DNA of 61,741 bases, the filler included, from Basidiobolus ranarum (lineage: Eukaryota): NCBI GenBank assembly GCA_040143965.1. It is 13 parts of 13 records of this genome, joined end to end, with 100 filler letters (N's around TTAATTAATTAA, not from the genome) between each part and the next. Parts side by side here need not be neighbours in the genome. Positions count along the whole stretch, not along the records: positions 14,312 to 18,977 come from JASJQH010001873.1; 12 more parts are not named here. One strand, written 5' to 3'. This document shows positions 11,635-60,439 of this stretch, one piece after another. A program made the translations under genes and the position numbers. How positions within the stretch are numbered: the first letter of the stretch is position 1; every line of letters starts with the position of its first letter. The notes below the pieces were generated by a model. It did no database searches. It was not told where the DNA came from and saw only the letters and a program-made list of their open reading frames with translations.

Positions 11635-14211
11635 TGATAAAGGTATTTAGTGGATTGTGAAGTGTTTTGGTCAAAATTTGGATTTGTAATTTAGATACTT
11701 AAGATTTATTGAATTGAATAAGTTTTACTCATATTTTACTAAGAAATAGGACTATTGGATTTGCTTAGATCATAACAAACATGCCTGTTCAGCATAGGTG
11801 GAAACTTGAGATGATTTGGTGTATTCAGAAAAAATAGTGAAAATTGGTAAAAGTGACCTAATTGATGTTTATATCAATTAGAGCAATAAGCACATGTTTT
11901 TGAATGGTTGAAGTGAGTGCTAAATAATCAGAATACAAATAAGCTAACTACTAAATAATTAGGTGCTATTCACCTGATTTTACCATTCCTGCTGAATTAA
12001 TTATTTTTCATTTCTCTTAAACTTAACTAATAACTTAATAATTCAAATTGTGCCTGAGCTACAGGCTTGGTCAAGATTCCAGCAATCATTTCTTCATTGG
12101 GTCAATAGACAAGTTTCATTTATATTGTTCTCTATTGCTTCTTTGACAATATGATGCCTGATACCTATATGTTTTGTTCATGCATGAAATGTAAGGTTAT
12201 TAGCTAATGAAATGCAACTTTGATTATCTTCAAATACAGTAACAGCATGTTTTTGCATGCATCCTTAGTCCATAAGTTACTTCCTTAAACACATAGATTC
12301 TAGTGTAGAAGCAGAGGTAGCCATGTTCTCTGCTTCTGTAGTGGAAAGTGCTATGGTTGCTTGCTTCTTACAATACCCAGTTATGCCTCCATTACCATAG
12401 AGAAGAGTGTACCCAGTTTTTGATCTTCTATCATCAAAGTTTCTTCCCCAGTCTGTTCACTGTAGCCTTCAAAATTTTGTGCATTGAAAGTGGCCAAGTA
12501 TTCCAGAACTAGATCTAGAGTTCCTCTTAAATACCTGAATATTTGTTATACTGCTGTTTTGAGCTCAGATCATGGATTTTTGAGATATTTGATGACAGTT
12601 CCTACTGGCACAGCAATGTCTGGACATGTTCCAACCATTGTATTTGTAAAACAACCCAACATGGATTGATAAGGGAACTGTTGGCTTTGATTTGGGTCAA
12701 TTTGGGCCATATTGGATTAAATTCTTATTAAGTTTGCATTGGGATCCATTGGTGTTGATACAGGCTTATTATTATGTATCTAGACTGATTCAGCATGCTT
12801 TTCCAACTGAGCTTAACTCTCCTAATTTGGACTCCAAGGAAATAACTTAGTTCACCTGTATCAGTCATCTGAAGTTAGTATGATAAGCTGCTTTTGGTCT
12901 GCTTAAGTGCTTCTAGATCATTTATGGCTATTATCAATTTGTCCACATATAGTGCCAAGATCAGAATCCTATTTCTGGTTGTTTTGCTGAAAATATTGTG
13001 ATCTGCTGTGTAATGTTGAAATTAAATGGATTCCAAATAGGTATCTATCTTGTTACACCATGCCCAGGGTGCTTACTTGAATCCATATGGCAATTTCTGC
13101 AATCTAAGTACCTTATTTTGGTGTCTAGATCAATAAATCCATCTGGTTGTACCATATAGATCTTTTCTTTGGGATCTCTATTTAGCAAGACTGTTTTTTC
13201 ATCCATTTGATGTAAATCAAGATTGTGCAAGGCTTCAAATGCCAGGAATGCTTGAATGGAGCTGAACTGAGCTAGTGGAGCTAGGGTTTGATCAAAATCA
13301 ACTCCTAAAGTCTGGAAATTACCTTTTGCAACTAATCTTACTTTGTGCCTTTCTACGGTTCCATCAGCGTGGTTTTGACTTTGTAGACCCATTGGTAGCC
13401 TGTTGGCTTTCTCCCTGATGTTTGAGGATTTAAGGCCAATGTTTAATTTTGTTAAGTGAATAAAGCTCATCAGACATTGCTTTTTCCCAGAATTTTTACT
13501 CAGGACACTCCAGAGCTTAATCTAGAGTCACTGGCATGTCACAGAATGCTGCATAAGCATAGATTTCATCATTAAAAGTGCTCCACCAGCTATGTGGCTT
13601 ATTCCTCCTTCTGGGTGATCTTCTAGGACAAGAATTATCCTCTGATGTAATTGGGGCTAATATCTGGTAGAGTAGGGCTCAGATACAGCTGGAATTTTGT
13701 CAGACACTTCATCAATAGTACTGATTGTGTTTCCTGAGGCAAAAACTGTGGTTTGAGGTGAAAAGTTTGCTTTCTCATCAAAAATCACATCTCTGCACTT
13801 AATTAACTTCTGATTCTTGTTATCAAACAGTTTGTAGGCCTTAGATCCATCACGGTAACTAAGATATATGCATTTCTTGCCTTTGGGTTCCATTTTGGAG
13901 CGTTTTTGAGCTGGAATTAGGCAATATGCTCTGCAATCAAAGTTCCTGAGATCATACACACTGGGTTTTGATTCATAAAGGGATTCAAATGGAGTAGAAT
14001 TTTGTGGCAATGTTCATAGGCATCTGTTTTTGATCTAGACTTTGGAGAAGACAGAATCCACCCAATATTGGTAATCTAACTTTTGATCATCTAACATTGA
14101 GCTTGCCATCTCCACTATTTTCCTATTAGGGCATTCTGCAACTCTATTTTGCTGTGGAGTATATGGTACAGTAGTTTGTTGCATAATTCCATGTTTAAAA
14201 CCAAACTAGCA
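11635..14211 (-). mobile_element. Ty1/copia retrotransposon, family 1: integrase-RT-RNase H plus 3' LTR (11635-11985); 5' end lost at the linker
   Basis: ORF fragments KMEPKGKKCIYL, KVRLVAKG...LHQMD and RNase H motifs in INT-RT-RH order; ~350-bp TG...CA LTR homologous to 22103-22453. Confidence 0.92.
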
Positions 14212-14311: not shown

Positions 14312-14442
14312 CTCAACCTCCACAGAATGCTGAGACTCCACAAGCCCCTGATGAGGAAGAACCCAAAGATTCAAGCTCGGGTTGTAGCAGTTGTGGTTGT
14401 AGGCATTGTGGTCGTAGACGCCACTTTGGTCGCAGATATTGA
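14312..14442 (+). CDS. Partial (3' end) copy 0 of the secreted Cys/Arg-tailed protein
   Basis: Translates as QPPQNAETPQAPDEEEPKDSSSGCSSCGCRHCGRRRHFGRRY*, followed by a homologous 3' flank; truncated by the contig start. Confidence 0.85.
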
Positions 14443-14999
14443 TATGCTTTCCTTCTGTACTATAGCAACTATGTATTCTACTCTATTCAAGAATAAATGA
14501 AGAGAGATATTACAATGCGACAAGCTTCATACCTGTATTTATGAGACGAAAAGCACATATTAACCCTTTACCTAGCGTTAACAAGGCATTGACTTACTAA
14601 GATTTTCTTTCATATAATGCAATATTGCATTAGAGTTATTAGAGTTCAAATACTTATCATGAGGGTAATACGTAATAGATGAGGTTCCGGTAACCGGCTC
14701 AAATTTGACAATGTCTGTAGATATTGTACCAAAGTCGTGTGTGAGTGAAACAGTCATTATGTTCCTAACAATTTAAGAATGTTAACAAGTTAAGTTTTGT
14801 AGATTTCAGCATGAGTTATTAATTTTTGCTAATACAGATTCGTATAGAAGTAATCGCAAGCAAGTAAAGTAAATAGTTGGAATAACTATAGTAAAGGATC
14901 AGTAATTGGTCCATTCTTTACTAGCATCTATTTGTATTCATACAATTTAGTTCAGTCATTTAAATAATTTCAAGAGTCACAGTTATATCATATAATCTA

Positions 15000-15272
15000 G
15001 CAAGTGAACCATAGTTTATTACTTTTATAATATAAAAAAGTGTAGATTCCGATTGTACAATCATAATTTTCGTTGGCAGCTGAATTTAATCACTAGATTG
15101 GTGAACAGTTTGATAGTGCTATTATGATTTAAACATTCTCTATACTTTCACTAAAGCATCAATGTGACAGCGTTCCAAGTCTAATTGATAAAAAATCTAT
15201 TTTCAGGATACTCTCTAGGTTTATATAAATATGTTCTTGAAGGTCTATGAAGAATACCCATAGTATACAAAT
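15000..15272 (+). promoter_or_regulatory. Conserved upstream block of the array genes (homologous to ~17860-18103)
   Basis: Shared gcaagtga..atagtttattacttt..gtagattc..taattttcgttggcagc..ctttcactaa..gcatcaatgt motifs and a TATA box before copies 1 and 3. Confidence 0.55.
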
Positions 15273-16028
15273 ATGCATATCAAACTCAAATTATTCATTA
15301 TTTCCGCATTACTAGCAAAGGCATCTGTTGGAGTTCCTCTGAGTGCACTATCCCCTGACTATAACAATGTTGCGCTACGAAACGCAAGCCCGTTAGGAGA
15401 AGGTGCTCAGATTCTGTCACCACCCATGCAGCAGTCAGGATACATTACCAATCAGTCAGAGCAGTCGCCACTTCTAAAGCAAGTGTTTAATACCGAAACA
15501 AGAAAGCATGACTATTTGAATGACGCAAGAATAGATAACGACAGAAATTCGAATATAAAATTACAATCAGGCCCTAGCTTGGAAGCCGAAGGTAACGAGG
15601 CACAATCTGACCAAGGTGAACACACAGATACTGGGTCCAATATTGATCTCGGAATGGCTCAAGTAGCACAGAATTCTGAGGGCGATGCAACCAATAACCT
15701 AGTATCGTCCTCAGAGAATATAGGATCAGAGGGGAGCATACCACTACAACAGTTGCCGAATAATCTGGGTCAGACTTTACCTCAGGTCGCCTTACTTGAC
15801 GACGTTCAAGGGAATTCAGCACAGACAGGACATGCTCTATCAGATTCCAATCAGTTTGACCAAGTGCAACGGATTGAGCAAACATTATATCAATCGCCTC
15901 AAGCATCACAGAAGGCTGAGACTCCACAAATCCCTGACGAGGAAGAGCCCGAAGATTCGGGCTCGGGTTGTAGAAGCTGTGGTTGCAGGAATTGCGGTCG
16001 TAGACGCCACTACGGCCGCAGATATTGA
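15273..16028 (+). CDS. Secreted N/Q/S/E-rich protein with C-terminal CxxCxCxxC/Arg-rich tail, copy 1 (251 aa)
   Basis: Signal-peptide-like N-terminus MHIKLKLFIISALLAKASVG, intronless ORF, TATAAA ~50 nt upstream, frame conserved among paralogs. Confidence 0.9.
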   Translation: MHIKLKLFIISALLAKASVGVPLSALSPDYNNVALRNASPLGEGAQILSPPMQQSGYITNQSEQSPLLKQVFNTETRKHDYLNDARIDNDRNSNIKLQSGPSLEAEGNEAQSDQGEHTDTGSNIDLGMAQVAQNSEGDATNNLVSSSENIGSEGSIPLQQLPNNLGQTLPQVALLDDVQGNSAQTGHALSDSNQFDQVQRIEQTLYQSPQASQKAETPQIPDEEEPEDSGSGCRSCGCRNCGRRRHYGRRY

Positions 16029-16679
16029 TATAGTTTCCTTTAGCATTATAGCAATTATGCATTCTACTCTATTCAAGTGTTAATAAAGTGAGAGATTTCA
16101 TTGCGACAAGTTCATTGTTTGCCTTTGTGAGACTCAATAAGTAAAGTAGCACTTAACGTAGCCTAGACTTATTAAGATCTCCTTTCATACATTACATATA
16201 ACATAAGAGCTTATGCCTTTAATATCATAGATTCAAACAGGTACAATGGATAGTTAGAGTAATTACGGTCAAGGATCAGAGATTCCACCATTCTTCTTTT
16301 CCCATCTTATGCTAGTACCCACACAATCAAGTTCATTTACTCTAAAAATTCACATATTATTTAGCAATCGAATTATAATATACAGTTAAACTTCAAAAAC
16401 GTGTCGATTGAGATTATTCAATGATGAGCTGAATATAATTACTGCAATGGTGCACTGATTTATACTTTCGTTGCACTTTCACTAATTTATTGAAAGCATG
16501 ATTCATATTAGCAAACTAGTTAGAGGGCATTCTTTAGTATTTTCATATACTTTCGCTGATGCGTAAATGTGACGGTGATTCAATTATGATTCATGATAAC
16601 AATTTTGATATAAGATCCTCTTTAGGCCTGTATATATACGCACTTGAATGTCTATGAACAATCACTAAATTGAACAAAA

Positions 16680-17447
16680 ATGCATCTCAAACTCAGTTTA
16701 TTCTTAACCTCTGTAATACTCGCTAGGGTATCTGTTGGAGTTTCTCTGGGTGCTTTCTCCTCTAACTATAATAATGCAGCAGTTCCAAGCACCAGCCAGC
16801 TGGAAAACGGCAGTCAAGTTCAATCCCCAACTATACGGCAGTCGACATATCTTGGTAGTCAATCGAGTCAGTCACCACTACTCCACCAAGTGTTTAATAC
16901 TGCAGCAAGAAATCATAACAATTTAAATGACGTAAGGATCAATAGCCAAGGAAACTCGAATGTGAAATATCAGTCAGGCCCTAGCTTGGAGGCTGAAGGT
17001 AACGAAACAAACTCAGACCTAGGTGAACACACAGATACTGAACCAAATGGTGGGTCCAATATTGATGCTGGAATGGCTCAAGTCGCACAGAATTCTGAAG
17101 GTGATGCAACTAATAACCTAGTACCATCCTCAGAGAATATAGGATCAGAGGGGAGTGTGCCACTACAACAGTGGCTGAATAATATCGGTCAGGCTTTACC
17201 TCAGCCAGCCTTACTTGATCACGTTCAAGAGAATTCAGCACAGGCAGGACATGCGCTATCAGATTCAAATCAGTTTGACCAAGTACAGCGGATTGATCAA
17301 ACACTATATCAGCCATCCCAACCATCACAGAATGCTGAGGCTCCACCAGCCACTGACGAGGAAGAGACCGAGGATTCGGACTCGGGTTGTAGAAGCTGTG
17401 GTTGCAGGCATTGTGGTCGTAGACGCCGCTTTAGTCGCAGATATTGA
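16680..17447 (+). CDS. Secreted Cys/Arg-tailed protein, copy 2 (255 aa)
   Basis: Paralog of copy 1 with a frame-preserving indel; tail GCRSCGCRHCGRRRRFSRRY. Confidence 0.9.
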   Translation: MHLKLSLFLTSVILARVSVGVSLGAFSSNYNNAAVPSTSQLENGSQVQSPTIRQSTYLGSQSSQSPLLHQVFNTAARNHNNLNDVRINSQGNSNVKYQSGPSLEAEGNETNSDLGEHTDTEPNGGSNIDAGMAQVAQNSEGDATNNLVPSSENIGSEGSVPLQQWLNNIGQALPQPALLDHVQENSAQAGHALSDSNQFDQVQRIDQTLYQPSQPSQNAEAPPATDEEETEDSDSGCRSCGCRHCGRRRRFSRRY

Positions 17448-18103
17448 TATAGTTTCCTTTAGCATTATAGCAATTATGCATTCTACTCTATTCAAGTGTT
17501 AATAAAATGAGAGATTTCATTGCGACAAGTTCATTGTTTGCCTTTGTGAGACTAGATAGAAAACTAGTGCTTCATATACCCTTGACTCAGAGTAGTTTTA
17601 TTAAGATCTTCTTTCATTTAACAATATGTTGTATAAAAATTAAGTTAACTGGTGACTAATCCAATGAACGAGATTGTGCCGATTAAAATACCATTAATAT
17701 ATGTATATCATAAATCCATGTAGAAGTTTAAACAAATGCAATAAGTGGAGGCAGCAACTATAATAGAGAACCAGAAATTTTACCTTTTTCACATCGGTAG
17801 CTTTTACTCATGCAATCAAGTGCAATTACTTCAAAAATCACAATTATAACATATTATATAGCAAGTGATAGTTTATTACTTTTGCAATATAATAACGTGT
17901 AGATTCTGATTATTCGACCTTAATTTTCGTTGGCAGCCTAATTTAACTGGACTGGTGAAGATTTTATAGGCCCTAAACTTTCACTAATGCATCAATGTTA
18001 CGTTGTTCCAAGTTTAATTGATAAAAAATTCACTTACAGGATACTCTCCAGATATATTTATAAATACCTGCATTTCCATGAAGAATATACACATTACACA
18101 ACT

Positions 18104-18871
18104 ATGCATCTCAAACTCAATTTACTCATCACCTCTGCAGTACTAGTAAAGGTATCTGTTGGAGCTCCTCTGGGCGCGCTATCCTCTAATTATAACAATG
18201 TTGGCCTTCTAAGCACAAGCCAGTTAGCGGAAAACAATCAGTTTTTATCGCCGACTAGACAACAGTCCACTTACATTAACAACCAGTCGGAGCAGTCTCC
18301 ACTTCTCAAGCAAGTGTTCAATACCGTAACAAGAAAACATGACAACTTAAATAACGCAAGAATAGATAACGACAGAAATTCGAATATAAAATTCCAATCA
18401 GGCCCTAGCTTGGAAGCCGAAGGTAACGAAGTACAATCGGACCAAAGTGAAGGCACAGATACTGAGTCCAACAGCGGGTCAAATATTGATGCCAGAATGG
18501 CTCAAGTCGCACAGAATTCAGAGGGTGATGCAACTAATAATTTGGTACCGTCATCAGGAAATATAGGATCAGAGGGGAGCATACCACTACAACAGTTGCC
18601 GAATAATCTGGGTCAGACTTTACCTCAGGTCGCCTTACTTGACGACGTTCAAGGGAATTCAGCACAGACAGGACATGCTCTATCAGATTCCAATCAGTTT
18701 GACCAAGTGCAACGGATTGAGCAAACATTATATCAATCGCCTCAAGCATCACAGAAGGCTGAGACTCCACAAATCCCTGACGAGGAAGAGCCCGAAGATT
18801 CGGGCTCGGGTTGTAGAAGCTGTGGTTGCAGGAATTGCGGTCGTAGACGCCACTACGGCCGCAGATATTGA
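18104..18871 (+). CDS. Secreted Cys/Arg-tailed protein, copy 3 (255 aa)
   Basis: Start at ATG 18104 (MHLKLNLLITSAVLVKVSVG) by homology to copies 1 and 2; TATAAA at ~18059. Confidence 0.9.
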   Translation: MHLKLNLLITSAVLVKVSVGAPLGALSSNYNNVGLLSTSQLAENNQFLSPTRQQSTYINNQSEQSPLLKQVFNTVTRKHDNLNNARIDNDRNSNIKFQSGPSLEAEGNEVQSDQSEGTDTESNSGSNIDARMAQVAQNSEGDATNNLVPSSGNIGSEGSIPLQQLPNNLGQTLPQVALLDDVQGNSAQTGHALSDSNQFDQVQRIEQTLYQSPQASQKAETPQIPDEEEPEDSGSGCRSCGCRNCGRRRHYGRRY

Positions 18872-19077
18872 TATAGTTTCCTTTAGCATTATAGCAATTA
18901 TGCATTCTACTCTATTCAAGTGTTAATAAAGTGAGAGATTTCATTGCGACAAGTTCATTGTTTGCCTTTGTGAGACTNNNNNNNNNNNNNNNNNNNNNNN
19001 NNNNNNNNNNNNNNNNNNNNNTTAATTAATTAANNNNNNNNNNNNNNNNNNNNNNNNNNNNNNNNNNNNNNNNNNNN

Positions 19078-22000
19078 GCATATGTCAAACAGGAAAGATT
19101 GGTTTTCCAGCTTAAAACCAACCCAAACAAGGAAAGTCTACTTAGATGATGACTTTGCACTAGATGCAGTTGGTAAGGGCACAGTTGTGCTCAATTTAGA
19201 CCAAGATTCAGCTACACCATCTGCAATGTTCAATAATGTTCTCTACATACCAAATATAGCCAAGAATCTACTCTCAGTAAGCCAAGCAACAACTCAAGGA
19301 TTAAATTTCTTGTTTGGTAAGGCTGGATGCACAATTACAGCTCAGAATAATACCAAATTAGCTACTGGGATCAAAACTTAAAGCTTATACAAGCTAGAAA
19401 TCAACAAATTGCATTCTGAGCATGCAAACCTGGCCAAAACTGGTGAAATAAGTTGTCAAACATAGCATAAAAGATTAGGCCATATTGCAGGGCAAAAACT
19501 GACCCAAATGATCTGAAATCAGCTTGTTTCAAGCTTCAAAAGTGGAAACATCACTAAGTTGGATCTGTGTGAGGTTGCATATATGAAAAACATCACAGAC
19601 AGCCGTTTTCAAGTTGGGAGAGATCAAATCTTCTCAGAATCTTTCCCTGATTCATTCTGACCTATGTTCGCCCATGAAAAATGTCTCATTGGGCTGGAAA
19701 AGGTGCTTTATGACCTTAATTGATGACAAAACTAGATCAACTTGGGTATTCTTTTTCAAATCAAAATCTGAAGCCTTAGCTACATTCAAGCACAACAAAG
19801 TGATGGTAGAGAAAGAATCAGCACAAAAAATAAGGGTACCAAGGAGTGATAATGGTGGAGAATTTTGCTTTAAAGACTTTGCTTGTTTTGCTCTAAACAT
19901 GGAATTAAGCAACAAACTACTGTACCTTATACTCCACAGGAAAATGGAGTTGCAGAACATTTTAATAGGACTAAAGTGGTGATGGCAAGATCAATATTAC
20001 ATTATCAAAAGTTAGATTACCAATATTTGGCTGAATCTGTCTCCACTGGAGTCTTTATCAAAAACAAATGCCCAACAAGATTGCTACAAAATTCTACTCT
20101 GTTTGAAGCCCTATATGGATCAAAACCAAGTGTGGATCATCTCAGGATCTTTGGTTGCATAGGATATTGCCTAATTCCAGCTCAAAAATGCTCAAAATTG
20201 GAACCCAAAAGCAGAAAATGCATATTTCTTGGTTACTGTGATGGATCTAGGACCTACAGATTGTTTGATACCAAGAATCAGAAGTTAATCAAGTGCAGAG
20301 TTGTGATATATGATTAAAAAGCAAATTTTTCACTTCAAATCACAGTTTTTGATTCTGAAAACACAATTAGCACTGTTCAGGAAGTGTCTGACAAATTTCC
20401 AGCTCTATCTGAGCCCTATTCAATCGAAATACAGTCCCAATTACATTGAAGAATGATTCGGGACCCAGAAAATCATCCAGAAGGAGAAATAAGCCAGGAA
20501 ACTGGTGGAACACTTGCAATGATGATGTATACGCTTATGCAGCATTCTGTGACAAGCCACAGACTCTAGATCAAGCTCGGGAGTGCCCAGAATCAAAATT
20601 ATGAAGAAGCAATGTCAGCTGAGTTTTGTTCACTTCAGTACAATAACATATGGGTTTTAAGTCCTCTACCATCAGGGAGAAAGCAAATAGATTGCAAATG
20701 GGTCTACAAAGACCAAAACCAAGCAGATAGAACCATAGAAAGGTACAAAGCAAGATTAGTTGCAAAAAGCTACTCCCAGACACCAGGAGTTGATTTATTG
20801 AACGTTTTGCTCCAGTAGCTAGGTTTAGCTTGATTAGATCAATCCTGGCACTCTCAGCCATCCATAACCTTGATTATATCAAATGCATGTAAAAACAGCT
20901 TTTCTGAATGGATATCTAGAAGAAGAGATCTGTATGGAGCAACCAGATAAATTTGTTGACCCAAAACACACTGATATGGTCTGTAAACTGCAAAAATTGC
21001 TAAATGGACTCTAGCCAGCACTCCAGGCATGGTGCATCAACATAGATACCTATTTGGAATCACTAGAATTCCAACAATGCATAGCAGATCACATTATTTA
21101 CATCAAAACAACCAGAAATAGGATCCTTATCTTGGAACTCTATGTGGACGCCTTGATCATAGCCACAAATGATCTAGAAGCACTAAATCAGACAAAAAGC
21201 AGCTTATCAAACCAATATCAGATGACTCATATGGGTGAATTAAGTTATTTTCTTTGAAACCAAATCAAGAGAGATAAACCCAATCAGAAAAGCATGCTGA
21301 ATCAGTCTAGATAAAACCTAGATATCCTAAAATGCTTCAACATGAAGAATTGCAAACCTGTATCAACACTAATGGATCCCAATGTGAAACTAATGCAAAT
21401 TTTCATCCAATTTAGCCCAAAACAACTCAAATCAAAGCCAGGCGCTCCCTCACCCATCCATGGTGGGTTGTTTTATACATACAATAGTTAGAACATGTCC
21501 AGACATTGCTTTGAGAGTGGGAAATATCAGACATTATCTCAAAAATTCAGGAAAAAAAATATTCAGGTATTTCAGAGGATCTGAAGATCTAGTTCTGGAA
21601 TACTCTGCCACTCCTGATGCACAAAGATTTGAAGGATACAGTGATTCAGACTGGGGAACAAGCCTTGATGGTAGAATATCAACCACTGGGTATGCTTTTC
21701 TCTCTGGTAATGGAGCCATAACTTGGGATAATAAGAAGCAACCAACCAAAGCACTTTCCACTACAGAAGCATAGTATATGGTGGCCTCTGCTACTACACA
21801 AGAAGCTATGAGGTTAAGGAAGTTATTTACACACTCAGGATACATGCAAAAATGTGCTATTACTGTATCTGAAGATAATCAGAGTGGTTTTTCATTAGAT
21901 AAAAACCCAACATTTTATGCTAAAACAAAACATATAGACATTAGGCATCATTTTGTTAGAGAAGCAATGGAGAATGACATAATTGAACTTGTATATTACC

Positions 22001-22453
22001 CTGCTGAAGAAATGATTGCTGACATCTTAACCAAATATTATGTTAAAGCACATAAGATTAAGTTAGGTTTAATAGAAATACAAAAGATTTAGTGAGTGGG
22101 ATTGTTCGAATTAGGTGTATAGCAACTCATTGTTTAGTAGTTAGTTTATTCATATTCTGATTATTTAGTACTCAATTCTGTCATTCAAAAATGTGTGTTT
22201 ATTGCTACAAATGATTGAAATATCAATTGGATCACTTTTACCAATTTTCACTATTTTCTCAAATCTTCTCCAAATCAGCACAAAATTTTAACCATGCTTA
22301 ACAGGCATATTTGTTATAGTCTAAGCATGTCCAATAGTCCTATTTCCTAGTGAACTACAAATAGGACATATTCAACTTAAGTTACTTAAGTGTCTAATTT
22401 ACAAATCCAAATCATGTCCACACCACTTCCAAATACCCTTAACACTTAAATCA
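19078..22453 (+). mobile_element. Ty1/copia family 1: protease-integrase-RT-RNase H, PPT and 3' LTR (22103-22453)
   Basis: Motifs HMSNRKDWF, LIHSDLC, RSDNGGEF, PQENGVAE, YKARLVAK, LYVD, GYSDSDW and KTKHIDIRHHF; purine tract agtgagtggga precedes TGTT; many stops. Confidence 0.95.
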
Positions 22454-28600: not shown

Positions 28601-29380
28601 TGGTTCATGATGCCATCAACAAAAACTAATGGGCCATAGCCGCCAGCCCAAAAACAAGACCAAATCATTACACTGCCCCCACCAAACTTGACAGTTCTTA
28701 GGAGGTGACAGCTCTCGTAACGTTCGCCTTCCTTTCTCAAAACTTTTGGCTTGCCATCATTGCCAAACACGCGAAATCTTGATTCATCAGACCAGATTAT
28801 CGCGCTCCATTGTTCGTTGGTCCAGTTGACGTGTTTTTTGGCCCATTCGTATCTTTTTTTTCTGTGTATCAGAGAGCTTAGGCTTGCTTGCAGGAGAGGA
28901 GTATTTGAATCCCAACTGCTTGATCCATTCTTTTACGGTTGAGCGACAAACAGTTTTACCCATCAAGCGGAGTTTGTCTCTAATCATCTCAATTGTCTGA
29001 AAAGGATCTTTTCTGATTATGCGCTCCAAATGGCGCTTTGTATACTTGTCAAAGGTAGACGGTCTACCCGTGCTCTTCCCTGCCAAAGTGGTACCAGTTT
29101 CAGCTATTCTACCAATTGCACTTTGCACAGTTGTGCGCTTCATGTCAATCATGGTTGAAATGTCATGCTGACTGATTCCAAGCTGCTGCAAGTAGAAAAC
29201 CGTGGTCAATTTCGTTTTTTTTACTTCTTGTTCTGATCCTTTAGGATCTTGCAATCTTTTAATGGGAATTTCTACAGTTTTACTCTTATTGTGACCTAAT
29301 AAAATAGCTTGAAGTAGAAGTGAAGAGGAGGAAAATTTGCTTAATTTTTGGAGTTGACGAAACATTATTAACCCCGACCG
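28601..29380 (-). mobile_element. Tc1/mariner transposon, 5' part with a frameshifted transposase
   Basis: HTH region with STGRP, then WSDESRF and TVKFGGGSVMIWSCF after a frameshift in an A-run at ~28855; probable TIR end CGGTCGGGGTTAATAATG next to TA at 29381. Confidence 0.9.
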
Positions 29381-34150: not shown

Positions 34151-35841
34151 TTAAATAGGTTCTATCTGCTCAATGCGGATATGAATGTTTGCCGGATGTA
34201 TCGCGAACTTGAACTTCTCCATTACTGGTTCCTCAGCTGGTGGCGCGTCAATCAAAGAAAGTTGAAAGTTTGTTGTAATCATTGCAAGAAGGACAATCAG
34301 CTCCATCTCTGCTAAATGACGTCCAGGGCACACACGCGGGCCATAACCGAAAGTTAATCCTGTTTGATTCATAACTTTAATTTGACTCTCGGTTTCTCCG
34401 TTCTCGCCTAGCCATTGCCCTGGATTGAACTTGAAGGGCTCCGAGGTGGGCCATGACCTTAACGTTGCAAGACGAGTAAGAAGAAATATTTGGGTTCCTT
34501 GTTTGATAGGAATCCCTTGGATTTCTTGATCCTTTATTGCGCTAAAATGCAAGATCGGCGTGACTGAATGAAGTCGCATTATCTCTTGAATGAATGCATT
34601 AATGAAAGGAAGGCTTTCACTGATGGAGTTAAGAACCTTGTCAATGATATCCAAATCTTGATCCATGTCGACTTTGTTGATGTCTCCAAATGCTTGCTTC
34701 GCTTCCCCACGAATTCTTTCTTGGTAACTGGGGTTCTTTGCAAGCTCGTACAAGGCCCAGCTCATCAATGTGGCGGAGCTTTCTATTGGCAATGGAGATG
34801 TTAATAACAATGTGTGGTACACAAAATATGAGATTTCATAGACGTACCATATCCCGCCAACACAACTGTCAGTAAGTTGGCTTTCATCTGACTAGTGGTG
34901 AGTCGAAGAGTCTTGCGGCTTGTTTCGGTCAGGTCCGCTTCTTCATCAACTTCAAGGGTATTTTTCATAAGAATTTCGAGTAGAGTTCGTGAACTTCCAG
35001 TATCCGTTCCAAGAGATTGGTTGCTTTGGTCAACCAACGTCTGAATTCGTTCATTAAATTCTTCGGTAAATTCTTCAGCAATTCTATCGTCTTTACTTTT
35101 GTATATTTTCCAAATTGGAAACAGTGTCATCGTACGTTCGAAAAAGCGAGAAATAAGCACTTTACTTTTTTCCAATATCTCGGGCGAGAGAAAATTGTTC
35201 TCACCCCAGGAAAAAGAAACGTCACAAATAATGGAGAGAATGGTTGTCTTGATTTCCATCAAAATATTGTCAGTCAAATCATTACCGTTGTACCAATGTC
35301 TCATTGGATACTTGGCTTTGGTCGAAGAGGTGATATCAGAGTGCTGCTGGGCCAATAACACTTTTTGATTCTTAGCAATATCTGACAACTTGGCTTGAAG
35401 TTTCTTCGAGTGATACCATATACCTCTCTTAAACTCACGAACTTGAGTGCGGGAAAACGCTGAAGCAATCCAGCGTCGCGAATGCCGCCACTCTTCGCCT
35501 TCTTGACTAAATACACCATGCATATTCAAATCCGCCGCCACCTGTGCTACACCTGCGCCGCGAGCAAAGCCATCGGGCCGGGATTTTAGAATTTCATGGC
35601 ACATTTGAATATCAGAAATGACCAAGAATGGCTTCCAAAATAGTTGTAAGCAATACATTGATCCATACTTCCAAGCCCAGTTTTCGAAATCTCTTAGTAA
35701 AGATGCAATTCGTAACTGTAGCATATTTCCAAACAACGGGTGTACTTTCGGGCCCGGCAAGTGATTATACGGGTTTTTCTTGGTAATTCTTGCAAGATAG
35801 ACACATAGCAATAGAAATACGAGTAGAAGCGTTGGAAGCAT
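34151..35841 (-). CDS. Cytochrome P450, 2 exons (35841-34848, 34782-34151)
   Basis: N-terminal anchor MLPTLLLVFLLL, LPGP hinge, WxxxR, I-helix AGYESS rebuilt across a GTACGT...TAG intron (34847-34783), EIMR, and heme motif FGYGPRVCPG. Confidence 0.93.
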
Positions 35842-37157
35842 CTTGGCGGTTGAATTTGGCGTTTCGTTGCTTAAGTAGTGATGAGAGCTAGGCGATTCAG
35901 ATATGCGTATTGTACAACCTGACCTCATTCCACGATAGCTTAAAGACTAATTAAATCCATTATTAAGCAGATTGAAGGGGGAGGGAGGTGTAGGGGGTCT
36001 GTCGGACATGTTCTGTTATACTAAAAATAACTAGTTCTTCATGCTTCACTATGTACATTAGATATATTACAGTGAATCCACAAAGCAAATGCTGCTCATT
36101 ACGTGAAACTTCATGCTAGTGTGTGTTTCAGCATAGTTGCATGAAATATCTTGGTTTACTGTCACAAGCGACGAACTAATTGTAACAATAGTAGTAGAAC
36201 TTGCGTCTCGGATCCATGCAGCAAATCGTGAAACAGCATTGAGATGTCTACGATTTGATTTGATGAACATACGCCTTAAACAAATACTATCAATAAAAAC
36301 TCGTTGCATGAAGAAAATTATTTTTTATATAGTGGCAGCATATTTTCACTCTTTTAAATAGATGTCTAACTAGAGAAGTATATCTATTTTGCTTCACACC
36401 CGACTCACAGACGGACATAGAGTGCAAGCTTTGCATATCTGTCAAGAAATACTTTAGCGCATTATTCCTACAATATAGTTTTGAATATTACGCTTCCTTA
36501 TTTAAAGTTGATCAGGTTTAGGGGATGCTTCCCAGCTATTGGCATGTGATTTACATTATGAATTCAGTTATTAACTCGGAAATGGCCTTTTGCGGATTTA
36601 CTAATGTGTTCGAAGGATAAGTGGAATAAATGGTTGGGTTTACTGAACCGATGAAATAAAGCAGCACAGGACAGTAGAACTGTGCAGTAAGGATAGGGAA
36701 AATTCTTGGTGCAGAGTTGGGCTACTATATATCTTGGGATCAGTATGGCATTTTTATATTATAGTAATGTTACGAGTTTATAGCAGAGTTTACGAGTGAT
36801 TTATCTTTTGATCTATGCATATTTAAAAATCGAGCATATAATGAGCTATAACCTCAGTGAGTTTGTACAAGAACGGATATTTGCAATAATTCTGGTAACT
36901 TTGTTTCTAGTTGCAGTGATATTCAAAATATTATACGTTTTTAATGAGCCTTTGCTGGCATACTTACTATATATATATAAATGCTATATTATAGCCCAGT
37001 AATAAGTAAAAAAAATCAACGACCTGATTTTGTGTCCACAAGAAAAGTGATAAAAAGTCTTTTACTTTACTGAAGTTTGGGTTAGACTTTTAGAGGTTTT
37101 ATTGAGCATTCCAAGTTAATTTAGGAGGAGTAAAAGTACCATTTAGGGACAATGGAA

Positions 37158-38589: not shown

Positions 38590-41187
38590 TCACTGAATGA
38601 ACATTGGGCGCTGTACATCGGGTATTTCATCACACATTTTCTTTCGAAGCCATCCCATTTTCCCCAGAAACAAGCTTGCACTACCAAAATCAACTATAAG
38701 ATCAGAGTCAGACAAGGCCCGAGTGTCGATTGGTCTGGTCTTTCTATCAGTTATATACACGAAAAGATCCCAATCCTCAAGATTCGCCTTGCCTCGCTCT
38801 ATCCTAAAGCCTGAAGGGCTAAGAATATAGGCACCCTCCTCTTTTGAGCGACTGGTTGGACTACCTTTAGATTGCACATATATTGCTGTCAGTTGCCCAT
38901 CGGCTGTTGTTTTTCGTTTCTTGTTCACGGCGCTAGCTGCTATGTTCGGTTGCGAGTTTATTGGTTCTACAAATAAAACAGAGTCTGGACCGGATGCTTG
39001 TGGATAGTTGATGAATGCTACAATGACTTCTTCTTCCGACCTGCTGTTGAGATTTTGCTTGACTGAATCCCGAAGCGAGTCCAATTGAAATCCTGACTCT
39101 ACTCGATTACGTATGAAACATTGTGGAATGTAATATTCTTGCGTACTACGCTCAATATCTTTGAAATGGGCGAAAGATTCGCGTGGAAAAATGTCGACAA
39201 GTCGAAAAGCTGTGTAACCAAGTAACTTGAGCATTTCCAACTTTAACAGTATAATGTCCATATCGTTTCTCTCGTTTTCATCCGATGATAAATGCGTTAA
39301 AACTGAGGTTAGTACATATGGCCGTGATATAGTGTGCTTTTCAAGGGCCGCCTTGAAAATTAAAAATGGTACATCAACCAAGTACTTATCCGCATGTAAA
39401 TCCAGTGCAATAAACCCATTTTCGACAAGTGTTGAGATTCGTATACCCGGCCTGGTTAAATCAGTCAGATTTCCTGAATCATCGCTCGGTATTGGGACGA
39501 TCTTGTCCAAGAAAACAGGCATCTGCAAAACCTGATACGCTGCGAGCTGAGGCATGATTTTCAACACATCTGCGTTGGTGTCCTCATAGAGCTTTTTGGC
39601 GACATCATCAACAGCACGATCGATTAAGCTGATGGGTATTTTGCCGATCAAGCTAGTGTACAGCTGTCGCCACGAAAAATTTCCAGAGATTTTAGCTTTT
39701 CCTAACCGAAATAATAGCTCCACGAATATTCGAATGTGACCACCGGCTAGAAGAAGCCGATTTTTGACTTGCCTGTGGATCTCAAGTTCATGAATATCGG
39801 GAAGAGCCTTTGTAATAAGAAGACGACAAATTTCGCAGAGGTGAGGGTACTGGAGGAGTGGGATGGGGATGACATACTTTCGCGCTCCACTCATTTCCAC
39901 AGTGCTTAGTAACTGTTCTTGGCGCGTACCGACGAAGATCGGCATGAAGATAAATGTATCACGTTCATCAATCATGCTTTGACGATAAGCTGTCATCATG
40001 TTGGTCAAAAACTGCGTACCCTTATCGGAGTTCAAAATAGAATTGGTTTCATCAACGAAAAGAAGAAGAACTGATTTCGATTTTAAGCACATTGTCTGCC
40101 TGATATGTTCAAATACCATGGGTGTAGTGAGATTCAGCAGACTTTTTTTCGCATTTGCACAGATGCTATTTAATAGCTGCGGAGATGCTTTACGGGACTT
40201 CAAAAATGCATAGAGTAAAGGAATGGCGATATTGCCACTCGAAAAAATAGATGTCAACTCATACATATTGACATGTAATGACAAACCTTTATCGTGGCCA
40301 CATCGGAAAGCCTCTTGGAGGGAATCCGGTAGCGAGCGAAAAGATTTGAATAAGGAAGAATCCTTGTTGCTTGCCGGTTGATTTGAACTGATTGTATCAC
40401 CCGCTTTAGAATGCGAGGGTGCCGATGCAGCTGTTAACGCGGACACTATTGAAGCTGTGGAGGTCGCTAGCTCCTCACTACCGTAGGTAGGGGGAGTGAG
40501 GGTCAACTCCTGATAGTTGACAATTGTAGCCAATGCACGAAGGCAGAATGTTGTCTTGCCAATACCTGGGGCGCCCGTTATTGTGAGTAGTCGAGCCTCC
40601 TTCATCACATTAGAAAAATATTCACTAGAGTCTAGATTCGGGTTATCGGTATATTCAAGCAAGGAGTGCATCTCAGCAATGTAACCAACGAGACGGCGTA
40701 ATGCGGATTCTCGATTTACAAACGGAAAAGCCATGGCGAATATGGATAAACTTATAAGTTTATCTTCATTCGGGAGCTCGAACGATTCCCAATTTGTTCC
40801 TAATTTAAAGTTGTCGTAATTAAACCCAGTTAGAAGCTGATTAAGATTGGGCAGCACTTGCTCTGCTTCAATTGCTTTTTCCTGACGGCGTGTTTCTTCT
40901 TCCTGACGACGTTCTGCTACAATTTGAAGCTGTAGACGAAGGAGCTCGACTTCCTCCTGACGACGCGCTGCTTCCTCTTGACGAGCTTCTTCCTGGCGAC
41001 GAAAATGATCATACTGTCCTTGCCCATATGCATTGGCTGCTGAGAGAGGAAGCGTCACATAGTTATTTGCAACGACATCATCTTCAGGAAGGCCCATCAA
41101 CCAATTGAAGGCATCTGCAGTTAAACTTGTTTGATTCCTAGCAAGTTTTTCGTAAAAACCTTCTGACATTGATAAGAAATGAAGCAC
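38590..41187 (-). CDS. P-loop NTPase plus C-terminal restriction-endonuclease-fold protein (Crinkler/CR-effector-like); start at ATG 41169 or an upstream exon
   Basis: Uninterrupted 865-codon ORF with an R/E/Q coiled coil, PFVNRE, Walker A ITGAPGIGKT, Walker B LLLFVDE, AGGHIR, and C-terminal GPDSVLF...IYVQSK...FVYITD. Confidence 0.8.
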   Translation of the reverse strand: MLHFLSMSEGFYEKLARNQTSLTADAFNWLMGLPEDDVVANNYVTLPLSAANAYGQGQYDHFRRQEEARQEEAARRQEEVELLRLQLQIVAERRQEEETRRQEKAIEAEQVLPNLNQLLTGFNYDNFKLGTNWESFELPNEDKLISLSIFAMAFPFVNRESALRRLVGYIAEMHSLLEYTDNPNLDSSEYFSNVMKEARLLTITGAPGIGKTTFCLRALATIVNYQELTLTPPTYGSEELATSTASIVSALTAASAPSHSKAGDTISSNQPASNKDSSLFKSFRSLPDSLQEAFRCGHDKGLSLHVNMYELTSIFSSGNIAIPLLYAFLKSRKASPQLLNSICANAKKSLLNLTTPMVFEHIRQTMCLKSKSVLLLFVDETNSILNSDKGTQFLTNMMTAYRQSMIDERDTFIFMPIFVGTRQEQLLSTVEMSGARKYVIPIPLLQYPHLCEICRLLITKALPDIHELEIHRQVKNRLLLAGGHIRIFVELLFRLGKAKISGNFSWRQLYTSLIGKIPISLIDRAVDDVAKKLYEDTNADVLKIMPQLAAYQVLQMPVFLDKIVPIPSDDSGNLTDLTRPGIRISTLVENGFIALDLHADKYLVDVPFLIFKAALEKHTISRPYVLTSVLTHLSSDENERNDMDIILLKLEMLKLLGYTAFRLVDIFPRESFAHFKDIERSTQEYYIPQCFIRNRVESGFQLDSLRDSVKQNLNSRSEEEVIVAFINYPQASGPDSVLFVEPINSQPNIAASAVNKKRKTTADGQLTAIYVQSKGSPTSRSKEEGAYILSPSGFRIERGKANLEDWDLFVYITDRKTRPIDTRALSDSDLIVDFGSASLFLGKMGWLRKKMCDEIPDVQRPMFIQ

Positions 41188-52525: not shown

Positions 52526-53384
52526 ATGCAAGCAGTTAACAACGAATTCTTCAACAAGTTTGCCAAGGAGTACGATCAAGACCCAAACTGTTCACAAGGC
52601 GTCGATATCGGTAAGGCCATTCTTCGTGAACTTGGTTCATTACTAGATAAGTCAAAGACGGTAGCGATGGATTTCGGTTGTGGCACAGGTAGGTGAACTT
52701 TTTTATTTTCATCATCGCTTTATCCAGAATATTCATCTTAAATATTTGCCTTTAGGCTTGGTATCACAACAGATGTACCCGCATGTTCATCAGTTGGTTG
52801 GTGTAGATGCTTCAAAGGGCATGGTGGAGGTATACAACGAAAAGTTTGCCAAGCATGAGATTGACAATGCACATGCAGAGTGCGTGGAGCTTACTGCCGC
52901 CGAAAGTGATGGAAGTAATGGTGAAAAATGGGTGTTCAAAGATCAGTTGGACGGTAAGCGGTTTGATCTGATTTTTACCTCAATGGCGTGGCACCATGTT
53001 GAGAACATCGACATGATGGCTTGGATCTTGAAGAATTATCTAAAGGACGGTGGTAAATTGGTCGTGGCTGATATTAGAAAAAATGGTGAACAAAACACAT
53101 CAAATTCTGATGAGAGCGACAAACACGCACATAAGGCGCATGGTCACCAACATCAACACCACCATCAGCAACATGAGTCTCACGGTGCTTCTCATTTAGA
53201 TGGAAGCCATACAGTGACACACCATGGTGGATTCACCGACCAAGAAATCACTAAGAATTTGCAACAGGCTGGGTTGAAGGATATCGAGACTCGGATGTTG
53301 ATCACTATTACGATGAAAAAAGAAGAGCAATCCAAGGGCGTATCAATGGACATATCAATGGCTATAGGCACACGTCGTGATTAG
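52526..53384 (+). CDS. Class I SAM-dependent methyltransferase with a His-rich insertion; 2 exons (52526-52688, 52756-53384)
   Basis: Motif I MDFGCGTG is rebuilt across a GTAGGT...TAG intron (52689-52755); VGVDAS, FDLIFTSMAWHH and LKDGGKLVVAD follow. Confidence 0.92.
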
Positions 53385-54462: not shown

Positions 54463-56791
54463 TTAATGTCGACGATTACCACCACCACCTCCTCCGCCGG
54501 ATACTTGTGCATGACGTTGCTTGAAGGATTCAAATTCACTTTCCGAGAGTTGTTGCATCTATGTAGTGGATCGCAGAAATGTTTAATTAGTAGCTTTCAA
54601 AAGATTTATAGAAAATTTTCAACTCACCTTCATCGTAGTTTTGTTGAATCGGTACGGAATGAGCCCAAGCGTTCCATCGAATCTAATTGAAAAATGCATC
54701 TCTAGATGAATATATGAGCATGCTTGTTCATCTTAACAAGAGTACATTACCTGTTCTTTTTGATGTCAAGGAATCGAATCATATCCACCCCAGGCTGCAT
54801 GATGACGACATTATCAGCCTCTTGAGTAACTTTACCTGAGCCGAAAATGGAATTCAACTCCAAAAACTCTCTATCATCTTTTCGAGGATGTACCACTAAG
54901 GTTACATGTATATTGTTCTCAGTGGCAAACTTTCGGAATGTCGATACTGCATTCTCTTGAATCTCCCATTTGTCGAAGCTTCTGCCTTGACCAGAAGTCA
55001 TAAATTGTAAATTGTCGATAACTACGTGCTGCACATCGTACGCAAATACTGCGTGCCTCATTGTTTCTACCACTTCGTGTACTTGAGTACTTCCATGATA
55101 TTTGAGGAAATGCATTGGGAGTTGTTCAAATTGGTTAGCCCAGTCTATAAAATGCTCCGGAGTTTCACTTAGATCTTGATTCGCAAATTGGCAAAGCATT
55201 TTCTTGGCAAGACGTACGTTGGGAATTTCAAAACTACCCCACAAGGTGCTTACTCCGGAGGTACAGAAATCCAATGTAAGCTGACTTAAAAAGGTGGTTT
55301 TACCAATACCCGTGGGCCCTGTAATTACTGTCAATTCACCTGGACGATGTCCTTTGAGGATAGAGTTCAATGAAGGGAAATCTTTGGATTGGACACCACG
55401 AACTTGCGTTGGGTTGGAGATCTCTAGATGTACGGCGTCACGAAGGGTGCTGAAGTCCAGGATTTGTTCATGGCCCAAAGGCTTGGACTTTTTCAGGATA
55501 TCTGAAAGATTCTTGTCCATGATCAATGCTTGACTCGCGTTGATAGGTCCATCCAGTTCGCCACGGTTAAGTGTGTTGACTATTAAGCATCTATCAATTC
55601 CTAGTTTGTCAGCAAATCTACGGGCAATATCTTGGCCTTGAATGTCATCATCAAACCAAAGGTAGATTTTCTGGAATCTATCTAGCATTGGAAGTGTCTC
55701 CAGTGGTAGTTGATAAAGTCCATGTGGTAGTGAAATGGCTGGAATACCAGTAGCTTGATAGGCAGCCATAGCATCGAATTCTCGTCCAGCAAGAATAATC
55801 TTTTCCGATTCAGGGTGAATGGTATGGAATCCAAATAACCCTGGTGCACCGTTTCGGTCTGGGTCAAAGAAACTCGCTTTAGAATCTGGCCAAGAAGTAG
55901 CTTTAACTCTCACTGTACGATAAGTGACTTCCATTTCCCCACTATCGGCAACTTGAACTTGATCATAAGCAGTACGAGGGAAACTTAAACATAATTTTCT
56001 ATTTTCATTAGAATCTAAATCGCTTTCCTGAGCTTGGACGGACTGCTTTCCGACAGGATAATATCCAACTCCAACTCCATAGTACTCTAGAGTTTCGGGT
56101 GAAATCCCCTTTTCATCTATGCACCAACCGAGAATATCTGGAAATTCAGTTATCGGTTGAATTTCAATATACGGTTGTCTTGCTGGAATGTCTTCTCCCT
56201 CTTGTGCAAGTAATTTTCCTTGCTCTGAGTTGGTTTGGGACATCAATTTGAAGTCTTCCCAAGATCCTCTAGATAAACAAGAAGAACATCTGAAATTTCC
56301 GGTATCAGTTTTTAATTGGGCGGTAAAATTGAACTTGTATGGTTTACGTGGGCATTTTGGACATTTTACAGTGACTTCATTGGCAACGTTTGATCGCTTT
56401 GTGTGATTGTAGGTTTTCCACAGGTATTGGCGAATTTCTCTACTTCTATCGACAGTAGCAGCCTTTGCCGTACTAGAGCTCGCATGTTTCTTTGATGCGT
56501 TGCCAGGAGGCATCCCTTTAGTAGCTTTCTCAGATGCTGTAGTGCTACTGTAAAGAGAAACTCTAACACGAGAGCCCAAGGAATTTCTATAAAACCTGGA
56601 ACCAGAGCCCTCTACTTCCCAAAGATCCTTTGTTTATTTGTAGCATAGGTAAGTAAGCTGGATGTACGTATTTCACTGCCTCCAGTCAGATTAGATATTT
56701 TCAACGAATTGGGTTGAAAGTTGCTCACAGAACGAGTCAAGAGTTTCTGGAAATTTGGACTCCGTAAAGCATCTTTACACTGTGTATACAT
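54463..56791 (-). CDS. TWNK: Mitochondrial Twinkle (T7 gp4-like) primase-helicase; predicted exons 56791-56668, 56611-54751, 54682-54628, 54558-54463
   Basis: Zn motifs CPKC...CSSC, TOPRIM-like IYLWFDDD, SF4 motifs GELTVITGPTGIGKTT, IDNLQF, VVHPRK, TQEADNV and KNR/FDG joined across an intron; phase-compatible GT-AG introns. Confidence 0.92.
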
Positions 56792-59938: not shown

Positions 59939-60439
59939 ATGAAATTCACTTCCGCCCTTGTTGCTTTAGCCGTCTGCTTGGTTTCCACTCAAAGTGTTAA
60001 CGCTGTATGCACCGCCCAAGCTAATTTCGACCTTTGCATCAAGAATTCCCAAGCTGAATTAGATAAATGCGGTACACAAGATTTTGTCTGCAGATGCCAG
60101 CAACAACAGAACGTGGCTCAATGTTACCAACAGTGCCCTGATGATCCTATTATCCAAGGCCAAGCTGTTGGTGCCAAAGGTCTTGTTACTACTTACTGTG
60201 GCGCTGTCCCATCGGCCAACTCTGTTACCCCCTCTACCCCAGCTGCCTCAGCTGTTCCATCAACTAACCCCTCCGTCCCCTCCGCAGGCAATTCCAATGC
60301 CGTTCCCAGCGCAAGCACTTCATCTGGTGCTAGTGCTGCCCCAGGTTCTACCAACAAGCCTGCCAGTGGTGCTCAATCGATCACTTTTGGAAGCTTCGTT
60401 GCTCTTGCGGGTCTTGGAGCTGCCGCCATGAATATGTAG
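59939..60439 (+). CDS. Secreted GPI-anchored protein with an 8-Cys CFEM-like domain and a Ser/Thr/Pro/Ala stalk
   Basis: Signal peptide, 8 Cys including CxC, low-complexity stalk, hydrophobic C-terminus; TATAAAA at ~59880. Confidence 0.88.
   Translation: MKFTSALVALAVCLVSTQSVNAVCTAQANFDLCIKNSQAELDKCGTQDFVCRCQQQQNVAQCYQQCPDDPIIQGQAVGAKGLVTTYCGAVPSANSVTPSTPAASAVPSTNPSVPSAGNSNAVPSASTSSGASAAPGSTNKPASGAQSITFGSFVALAGLGAAAMNM

Follow-up and report, generated by a model that had tools for sequence, protein, structure and literature searches.

The present study examined a tandem gene array of the fungus Basidiobolus ranarum. The array lies in a window of 61,741 nucleotides, by which we mean the whole stretch of DNA analyzed (assembly GCA_040143965.1); the window consists of separate, unrelated contigs of approximately 4.7 kb with N-spacers between them. 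One contig (JASJQH010001873.1, positions 14312–18977) is occupied by three complete single-exon genes on the + strand and one truncated tail. Sequence comparisons suggest that these genes belong to a large undescribed secreted family found only in Basidiobolus; other genera might hold relatives that are too distant or not annotated. We speculate, with a probability of approximately 0.5, that the products of the array are bulk structural proteins of the extracellular space, joined through two conserved motifs, A and B, and held in place by their ends. An antibiotic of the defensin type appears less likely than a self-assembling wall or glue material. A first-pass annotation of the sequence had favored an antimicrobial or toxin peptide and listed a cross-linked wall or adhesive protein as an alternative, and this alternative is now the best reading.

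The array and its proteins

The first-pass annotation had described at least four intronless, head-to-tail paralogs approximately 1.4 kb apart that fill the contig. The array is real, intronless, and arranged head to tail; however, it comprises three intact genes and one cut-off tail, with a spacing of 1.42–1.59 kb (stop-to-stop distances of approximately 1.59, 1.42, and 1.42 kb along the array). The features are as follows.

14312–18977, no strand assigned: whole contig of 4,666 bp, bounded by N-spacers; the array exits at both ends
14314–14442, + strand: copy 0, a paralog cut at its 5' side, of which the last 42 codons and the stop remain; Pro/Gln/Glu linker and Cys/Arg tail (14380–14439)
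15140–15272, + strand: conserved proximal upstream block; TATA-like box (15222–15229) approximately 50 bp 5' of the ATG
15273–16028, + strand: copy 1, 251 amino acids (aa); predicted signal peptide, motif A, linker, motif B, acidic linker, Cys/Arg tail
15468–15593, + strand: copy 1 motif A, residues 66–107; basic on family average
15777–15893, + strand: copy 1 motif B, residues 169–207; acidic, Asn/Gln/Ser-rich, the most conserved block of the family
15966–16025, + strand: copy 1 Cys/Arg tail, 20 aa
15717–16134, + strand: 418-bp block identical to 18560–18977 (copies 1 and 3), which reaches the contig end
16029–16134, + strand: conserved 3' flank; AATAAA at 16082–16087, counterparts at 14492, 17501, and 18925
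16680–17447, + strand: copy 2, 255 aa; motif A 16875–17000, motif B 17196–17312, tail 17385–17444
18104–18871, + strand: copy 3, 255 aa; motif A 18299–18424, motif B 18620–18736, tail 18809–18868

The start of copy 3 was placed at its second ATG (18104), which is homologous to the start of the other copies, and the upstream ATG at 17987 was not used. The proteins are 71–86% identical to copy 1. The TATA-like box has counterparts at 16631–16638 and 18059–18064; the conserved upstream block is presumably a promoter, and the AATAAA of the 3' flank a putative poly(A) signal. Between copies 1 and 2, the proportions of nonsynonymous and synonymous differences (pN/pS) were 0.155/0.343 overall, 0.066/0.304 in motif B, and 0.085/0.237 in the tail, and these small counts gave no diversifying signal in the tail. 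The TATA-like boxes, the conserved AATAAA flanks, and pN being lower than pS indicate that the array genes are real. The identity of 418 bp shared by copies 1 and 3 may reflect recent gene conversion or an assembly collapse, and because of it the array contains just three distinct tails.

On the 5' side of each gene (15140–15272, 16546–16679, and 17974–18103), a shared AATGT(G/T)AC element, GATAA, and the TATA-like box occur in this order and are candidate common regulatory sites. Overlapping open reading frames (ORFs; 15574–16062 and 18534–18905 on the − strand, and 83-aa frames on the + strand) recur merely as shadows of the repeated gene and were discarded.

The predicted layout of the proteins, namely, a putative signal peptide, a Cys-free body, and a 20-aa tail with four Cys and six to eight Arg, was borne out. 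The N-terminus of every full copy is hydrophobic (Kyte-Doolittle mean of the best 11 residues, 2.3–2.4), the body is rich in Ser, Gln, Asn, Gly, and Glu, and all four Cys reside within the last 20 residues, among which zero or one is hydrophobic. A six-frame scan of the 61.7 kb for CxxCxCxxC yielded five matches, four of which were the array tails, and, thus, the pattern is not due to chance. Dibasic sites are absent near the window tails, the nearest upstream Lys or Arg being 18–32 residues away, in agreement with the earlier remark that no Kex2 site directly precedes the Cys core. The copies in the window have no internal repeats, no hydrophobic C-terminus of the glycosylphosphatidylinositol (GPI) type, and at most one dibasic RK, which is located inside motif A and is missing from copy 2. 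Since motifs A and B of the window genes are in one uninterrupted frame, their fusion is real.

The family and its conserved motifs

A first search returned 11 matches among 373 candidates (41–100% identity), three of which were the proteins of the window itself and eight were hypothetical proteins of B. ranarum. Profile searches yielded 27 matches among 4,973 candidates and 39 among the 8,000 candidates scored, and a profile search at E 0.001 found 43 among 1.84 billion representatives. All labeled matches were from Basidiobolus, and the 30 that were checked of 37 new proteins came from B. ranarum or B. meristosporus. B. ranarum records and the window together supplied 38 proteins. Clusters represented by a B. 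meristosporus protein contain approximately 108 member sequences (sum of member counts), including 90%-identity clusters of 32 and 23, and these family counts may include duplicated haplotypes and fragments. The homologs are all named "hypothetical" or "uncharacterized"; examples that are true homologs and share both motifs are K7432_018056 and K7432_013124 of B. ranarum and K493DRAFT_362234 and K493DRAFT_307178 of B. meristosporus.

The view that this is an undescribed fungal multigene family of secreted proteins with no recognizable domain was upheld, and no match to a characterized structural family emerged from Pfam or the Protein Data Bank (PDB). Pfam gave nothing at its cut-off for the three window proteins, 27 aligned members, and 12 further members; PDB sequences gave no match at E 10; and the ESM Atlas gave no usable match for copy 1 or for residues 96–184 of P0077 (P numbers denote the proteins of our set). 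The UniRef labels "CBM1 domain" and "SCP domain" on a few homologs were not reproduced by Pfam. A search of JGI metagenomes with the motif B alignment gave 109 pattern matches and no confirmed locus. We found no account of the family in the literature naming Basidiobolus that was covered, which did not extend to older ultrastructure or most subscription journals. The family is not mentioned in the accessible portions of 10.1101/2025.03.31.646025 and PMC9391592; the secretome orthogroup tables of the latter may list members without comment.

The conserved parts of the family are two ungapped motifs of approximately 37 residues, A (core charge +2.9) and B (core charge −2.3); measured from LL to the Pro that closes them, their cores are of equal length. 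Helical periodicity was noted over the first 12 residues of both motifs, and an alternation resembling a beta-strand with a variable polar turn in the second half of A. Motif B, with ALSxSNQFDQ at its center, is the most conserved element and lies just upstream of the acidic patch; it was missed by the first-pass annotation, and the second query block proposed there (MAQVAQ...) is not conserved beyond the closest paralogs. The spacers range from absent to tandem repeats (P0019).

Tails were compared in 39 proteins that end in motif B and a tail of 25–62 residues; this set includes the odd models P0030 and P0058 and leaves out shorter and longer tails. CxxCxCxxC was present in 5 of the 39 tails and any CxxC in 17; another 17 were free of Cys and mostly rich in Lys, Arg, and Tyr (18% Tyr, 20% Lys, and 15% Arg). 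At least +4 of net charge was found in the last 22 residues of 28 tails. Members of the Cys branch have an acidic patch ahead of the tail, and Arg accounts for 43% of their last 20 residues. Several members, the sub-branch of P0010 and P0013–15, end in a 6-residue stub such as RCxRCN after an acidic linker. The mean fraction of the top residue (41 rows) was 0.71 in motif B versus 0.40 in the tail (0.40 also in the linker), which, together with the rarity of the four-Cys pattern, places conservation in the motifs and not in the Cys pattern. Therefore, the Cys spacing reported as invariant is so within the window copies, but not across the family. The idea of a defensin-type precursor with an invariant disulfide core was not supported: Cys-free tails are common, no gamma-core or CS-alpha-beta array was found, and dozens of A-carrying relatives have no such tail.

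In a tree built from the B region (49 rows by 55 columns; weak in detail), two branches were separated, each containing both species: one of 21 rows (support 99/97) with acidic linkers and tails mainly of the Cys/Arg type, and one of 28 rows with tails mainly of the Lys/Arg/Tyr type. The four-Cys form of the tail is a recent sub-branch. A C-x6-C pair occurs near the mature N-terminus of P0017–P0019, P0022, P0028, P0034, P0045, and their kin; it is found in A-only, B-only, and basal A+B chains and is absent from the branch of the window, in which the Cys sit in the tail. RF-G-RR is an RFamide-like amidation signal. It was present in P0003, P0004, P0006, P0007, and P0008, but in none of the four window tails, and was rejected as an explanation.

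The two motifs are separable. Among 96 proteins, partial models included, 34 carried A only, 29 B only, 18 A followed by B, 7 B followed by A, and 1 three B motifs, and 7 were not assigned by pattern. Complete A-only chains (P0045, P0053, and P0088) and B-only chains (P0077, P0036, and P0049) each have their own predicted signal peptide and occur in both species. In A-only chains, the Cys/Arg/Tyr segment is N-terminal and the acidic part C-terminal; B-only chains are the mirror image. Neighboring accessions in B. meristosporus pair the two types: ORX75913 (A) with ORX75914 (B), K493DRAFT_302776 (B) with K493DRAFT_302777 (A), and ORX85812 (A) with ORX85814 (B). Among the 15 members examined of the 32-member cluster at 90% identity, 11 were A-only, 3 were B+A models, and 1 was B-only. 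The seven B+A records resemble gene models in which a B gene was joined to the A gene that follows it, and one of them (P0084) retains the signal-like stretch of the A gene. These records suggest a layout of alternating A-only and B-only genes. Since the motifs appear to be co-amplified as neighbors in one species and are fused in another, A and B may work together.

In P0028 and P0082 of B. meristosporus, which are on different contigs, a whole A-only chain is joined to a B-only chain directly after the signal peptide of the latter. This join may be a genuine fusion that arose independently or a gene-model error that occurred twice.

Possible functions of the family

The family is amplified and predicted to be secreted, and its chain ends are rich in Cys, Tyr, Arg, Lys, or His. 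AlphaFold2 monomers contained the signal helix only (mean predicted local distance difference test score [pLDDT] of 49.6 with 27 rows and 52.9 with 51 rows), and the monomer is, thus, predicted to be unfolded. After secretion, motif A of one chain would pair with motif B of another, probably as beta structure. A-only and B-only chains would form a two-component assembly, and A+B chains of the window type would link head to tail. The assembly would subsequently be locked or glued by the ends. A cluster of four Cys in nine residues may suit inter-chain bridges better than a folded core, and the Cys-dense tails of the window type could form inter-chain disulfides. Tyr and Lys provide the other common cross-linking and adhesive chemistry, as in extensins, mussel foot proteins, and spore-coat proteins, and the Cys-free branch might use Tyr/Lys cross-linking or electrostatic sticking instead. 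The size and redundancy of the family suggest dosage. Basidiobolus forms thick-walled zygospores as well as capilliconidia, the adhesive tips of which attach to insects (PMC10964425 and PMC13370150, each in part). Either could be the site; the likely locations are the wall layers of spores or zygospores, or the adhesive capilliconidial tip.

In its most specific form, this proposal is a two-component protein polymer unique to Basidiobolus, in which basic A and acidic B, carried by alternating genes or by a single fused chain, zip together outside the cell, with interchangeable Cys/Arg or Tyr/Lys sticky ends, in the adhesive capilliconidial tip or the zygospore coat. We regard this form as tentative and rather doubtful.

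Several observations weigh against the structural reading. The motifs were unpaired in both AlphaFold2 monomer models, the alignments of which were shallow (27 and 51 rows). No register of charge or hydropathy complementarity between A and B was better than shuffles (p 0.79 and 0.66), and homology between them was not detected (hhalign probability 0.2; profile shuffle p 0.29). The evidence that split genes are adjacent comes from accession order, same-sized contigs, and gene models that span both genes, as opposed to the DNA itself. Uncollapsed haplotypes or fragmented models may have raised the copy numbers. Furthermore, the C-terminus of 28 of 47 chains lies 43–49 residues from motif B, and both branches share a terminal G-x-R-Y/H. 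A recognized or processed tail fits this fixed length and shared ending equally well; by the same token, the RRY of the window tails, which had been called invariant, is partly a family trait. Sub-threshold Pfam matches also linked A-only N-termini to the precursor of mussel myticin (at best 18.4 bits and E 0.0025, the cut-off being 28.5 bits).

The last two points lead to the antimicrobial proposal, which was not supported in its defensin form and persists in a looser, cathelicidin-like one. The family would be a library of cationic antimicrobial or microbiome-shaping peptides, in which a pro-region (B, with A as a partner or inhibitor) neutralizes a variable C-terminal peptide that is cut off by an extracellular protease other than Kex2. 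The positive charge of most tails (28/39), the acidic patch ahead of the tail in the Cys branch, and the fixed tail length are as expected. Cathelicidins also unite a conserved pro-domain with highly variable C-terminal peptides (PMC5564380, in part), the fungus lives among gut bacteria (PMC10964425, in part), and four chains with an A-only-type N-terminus (P0028, P0082, P0086, and P0088) gave the weak myticin-precursor matches (E 0.0025–0.21, all below the cut-off). However, a conserved cleavage site ahead of the tail was not found, the 20-residue tail has at most one hydrophobic residue and no diversifying signal, and approximately 230 precursor residues would be spent per 20 of product. Moreover, a whole sub-branch (P0010 and P0013–15) ends in a stub, and 34 of the 96 proteins carry motif A without B. 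We consider this explanation to be unlikely.

Single-chain surface adhesins or host-interaction proteins would use the Arg-rich tail to bind polyanions (mucus, cuticle, or bacterial surfaces) or to enter cells, with the motifs anchoring the protein to the wall or a receptor. Interaction proteins typically form lineage-restricted multigene families, and the abundance of Arg in the Cys branch (43% of the last 20 residues) suits such binding, as does a genus that cycles between insect surfaces and herptile guts (PMC10964425, in part). However, the amplification is near-identical rather than diversifying, the window copies have no GPI-type C-terminus, and the paired A-only and B-only genes are left unexplained, which makes this reading quite improbable. 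Secreted metal-binding or redox-buffer proteins with a metallothionein-like Cys cluster are very improbable. The CxC and CxxC units, with four Cys packed into nine residues, resemble such a site, but secreted Cys is normally oxidized, four Cys per 250 residues make a poor chelator, 17 of the 39 tails are Cys-free, and the four-Cys spacing is present in just 5. Something other than the structural protein and these three rivals also appears unlikely, slightly more so than the cathelicidin-like library.

With approximately 40 to more than 100 gene models per genome, the family may rank among the larger secreted families of Basidiobolus. If it forms spore glue or wall, it would provide a molecular handle on the transfer of a gut fungus from feces to insects and back to frogs and lizards, as well as on surface antigens of an occasional human and animal pathogen and on a new protein material assembled from unlike chains. 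Should the tails be released, the family would be a fungal parallel to cathelicidins. Whichever reading is true, motifs A and B are ready profiles for annotating Basidiobolus, and the A-only/B-only pair makes the main question amenable to the mixing of two peptides.

Other genes in the window and comparison with known systems

Other contigs of the window contain unrelated features. Decayed Copia-type pieces (RVT_2, E 2e-17) at 13045–13893 (− strand) and 19082–22092 (+ strand) sit on the flanking contigs with no physical linkage to the array; therefore, an array "beside Copia elements" is an artefact. The remaining observations are as follows.

1703–2482, − strand: exon of an RRM protein
28787–29365, − strand: fragment of a Tc1/mariner transposase
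34151–35928, − strand: cytochrome P450 in two ORFs, probably separated by one intron; 34801–35928 matches p450 (E 3e-20) and 34151–34765 carries the heme motif
38590–41169, − strand: uninterrupted ORF of 859 aa; weak match to a P-loop domain (AAA_22, E 0.0002, under the cut-off) and a C-terminal stretch resembling a PD-(D/E)xK nuclease, possibly a Crinkler-like layout
52773–53384, + strand: methyltransferase with a His-rich insert
54747–56513, − strand: 588-aa ORF with Toprim and a DnaB-like helicase, presumably Twinkle-like
59939–60439, + strand: small secreted six-Cys protein with a Ser/Pro stalk and a GPI-like end; no Pfam match at cut-off

CS-alpha-beta defensins, including fungal plectasin, have six or more Cys in a CSH/CS-alpha-beta array and usually a GXC/CXG gamma-core (PMC5116183, in part). 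They share with the family a signal peptide, an acidic stretch, and a cationic Cys-containing C-terminus. However, the tail of the family differs in having four Cys in nine residues, neither motif, and Cys that are not conserved among members. The CSH motif (CxxxC ... CxC) and the six-Cys array were absent in all five four-Cys chains tested, and none of the five matched any of three gamma-core patterns. These differences rule out a CS-alpha-beta defensin. Hydrophobins have an eight-Cys pattern; the four Cys of the window proteins, all terminal, and the lack of a Pfam match exclude this identity.

Cathelicidins are alike in layout alone, namely, a signal peptide, a conserved pro-part, and a highly variable cationic C-terminus with or without disulfides (PMC5564380, in part). 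This layout was found in the family (0.71 in B versus 0.40 in the tail; at least +4 in 28 of 39 tails). In contrast to cathelicidins, the conserved part consists of two short unfolded motifs that are separable onto different genes, and there is no cathelin fold or Pfam match. Cathelicidin identity was rejected because no cathelin-like Pfam or PDB match was obtained and no folded domain is predicted.

The Rep1 repellent precursor of Ustilago maydis is cut into 11 peptides (PMC3133707, in part). Rep1 resembles the family as a lineage-restricted secreted protein with short conserved motifs that possibly assemble at the cell surface. A Kex2 repeat precursor of this type was excluded by the absence of internal repeats and processing sites in the window proteins. 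The functional amyloid of HET-s stacks two repeats of complementary charge. Unlike these repeats, A and B are not detectably homologous; their net charges are opposite, but no register was better than shuffles (p 0.79).

Insect chorion proteins, plant extensins, mussel foot proteins, and the Bacillus spore-coat proteins CotC and CotG are encoded by multigene clusters and combine low-complexity spacers with Tyr/Lys/Cys-rich cross-linking or adhesive blocks. The likeness is an analogy of design alone, as Pfam, PDB, and sequence searches found no relationship. A block-like and amplified family, predicted to be secreted and unfolded and with ends rich in Cys, Tyr, and Lys, has the layout of a cross-linked extracellular structural protein.

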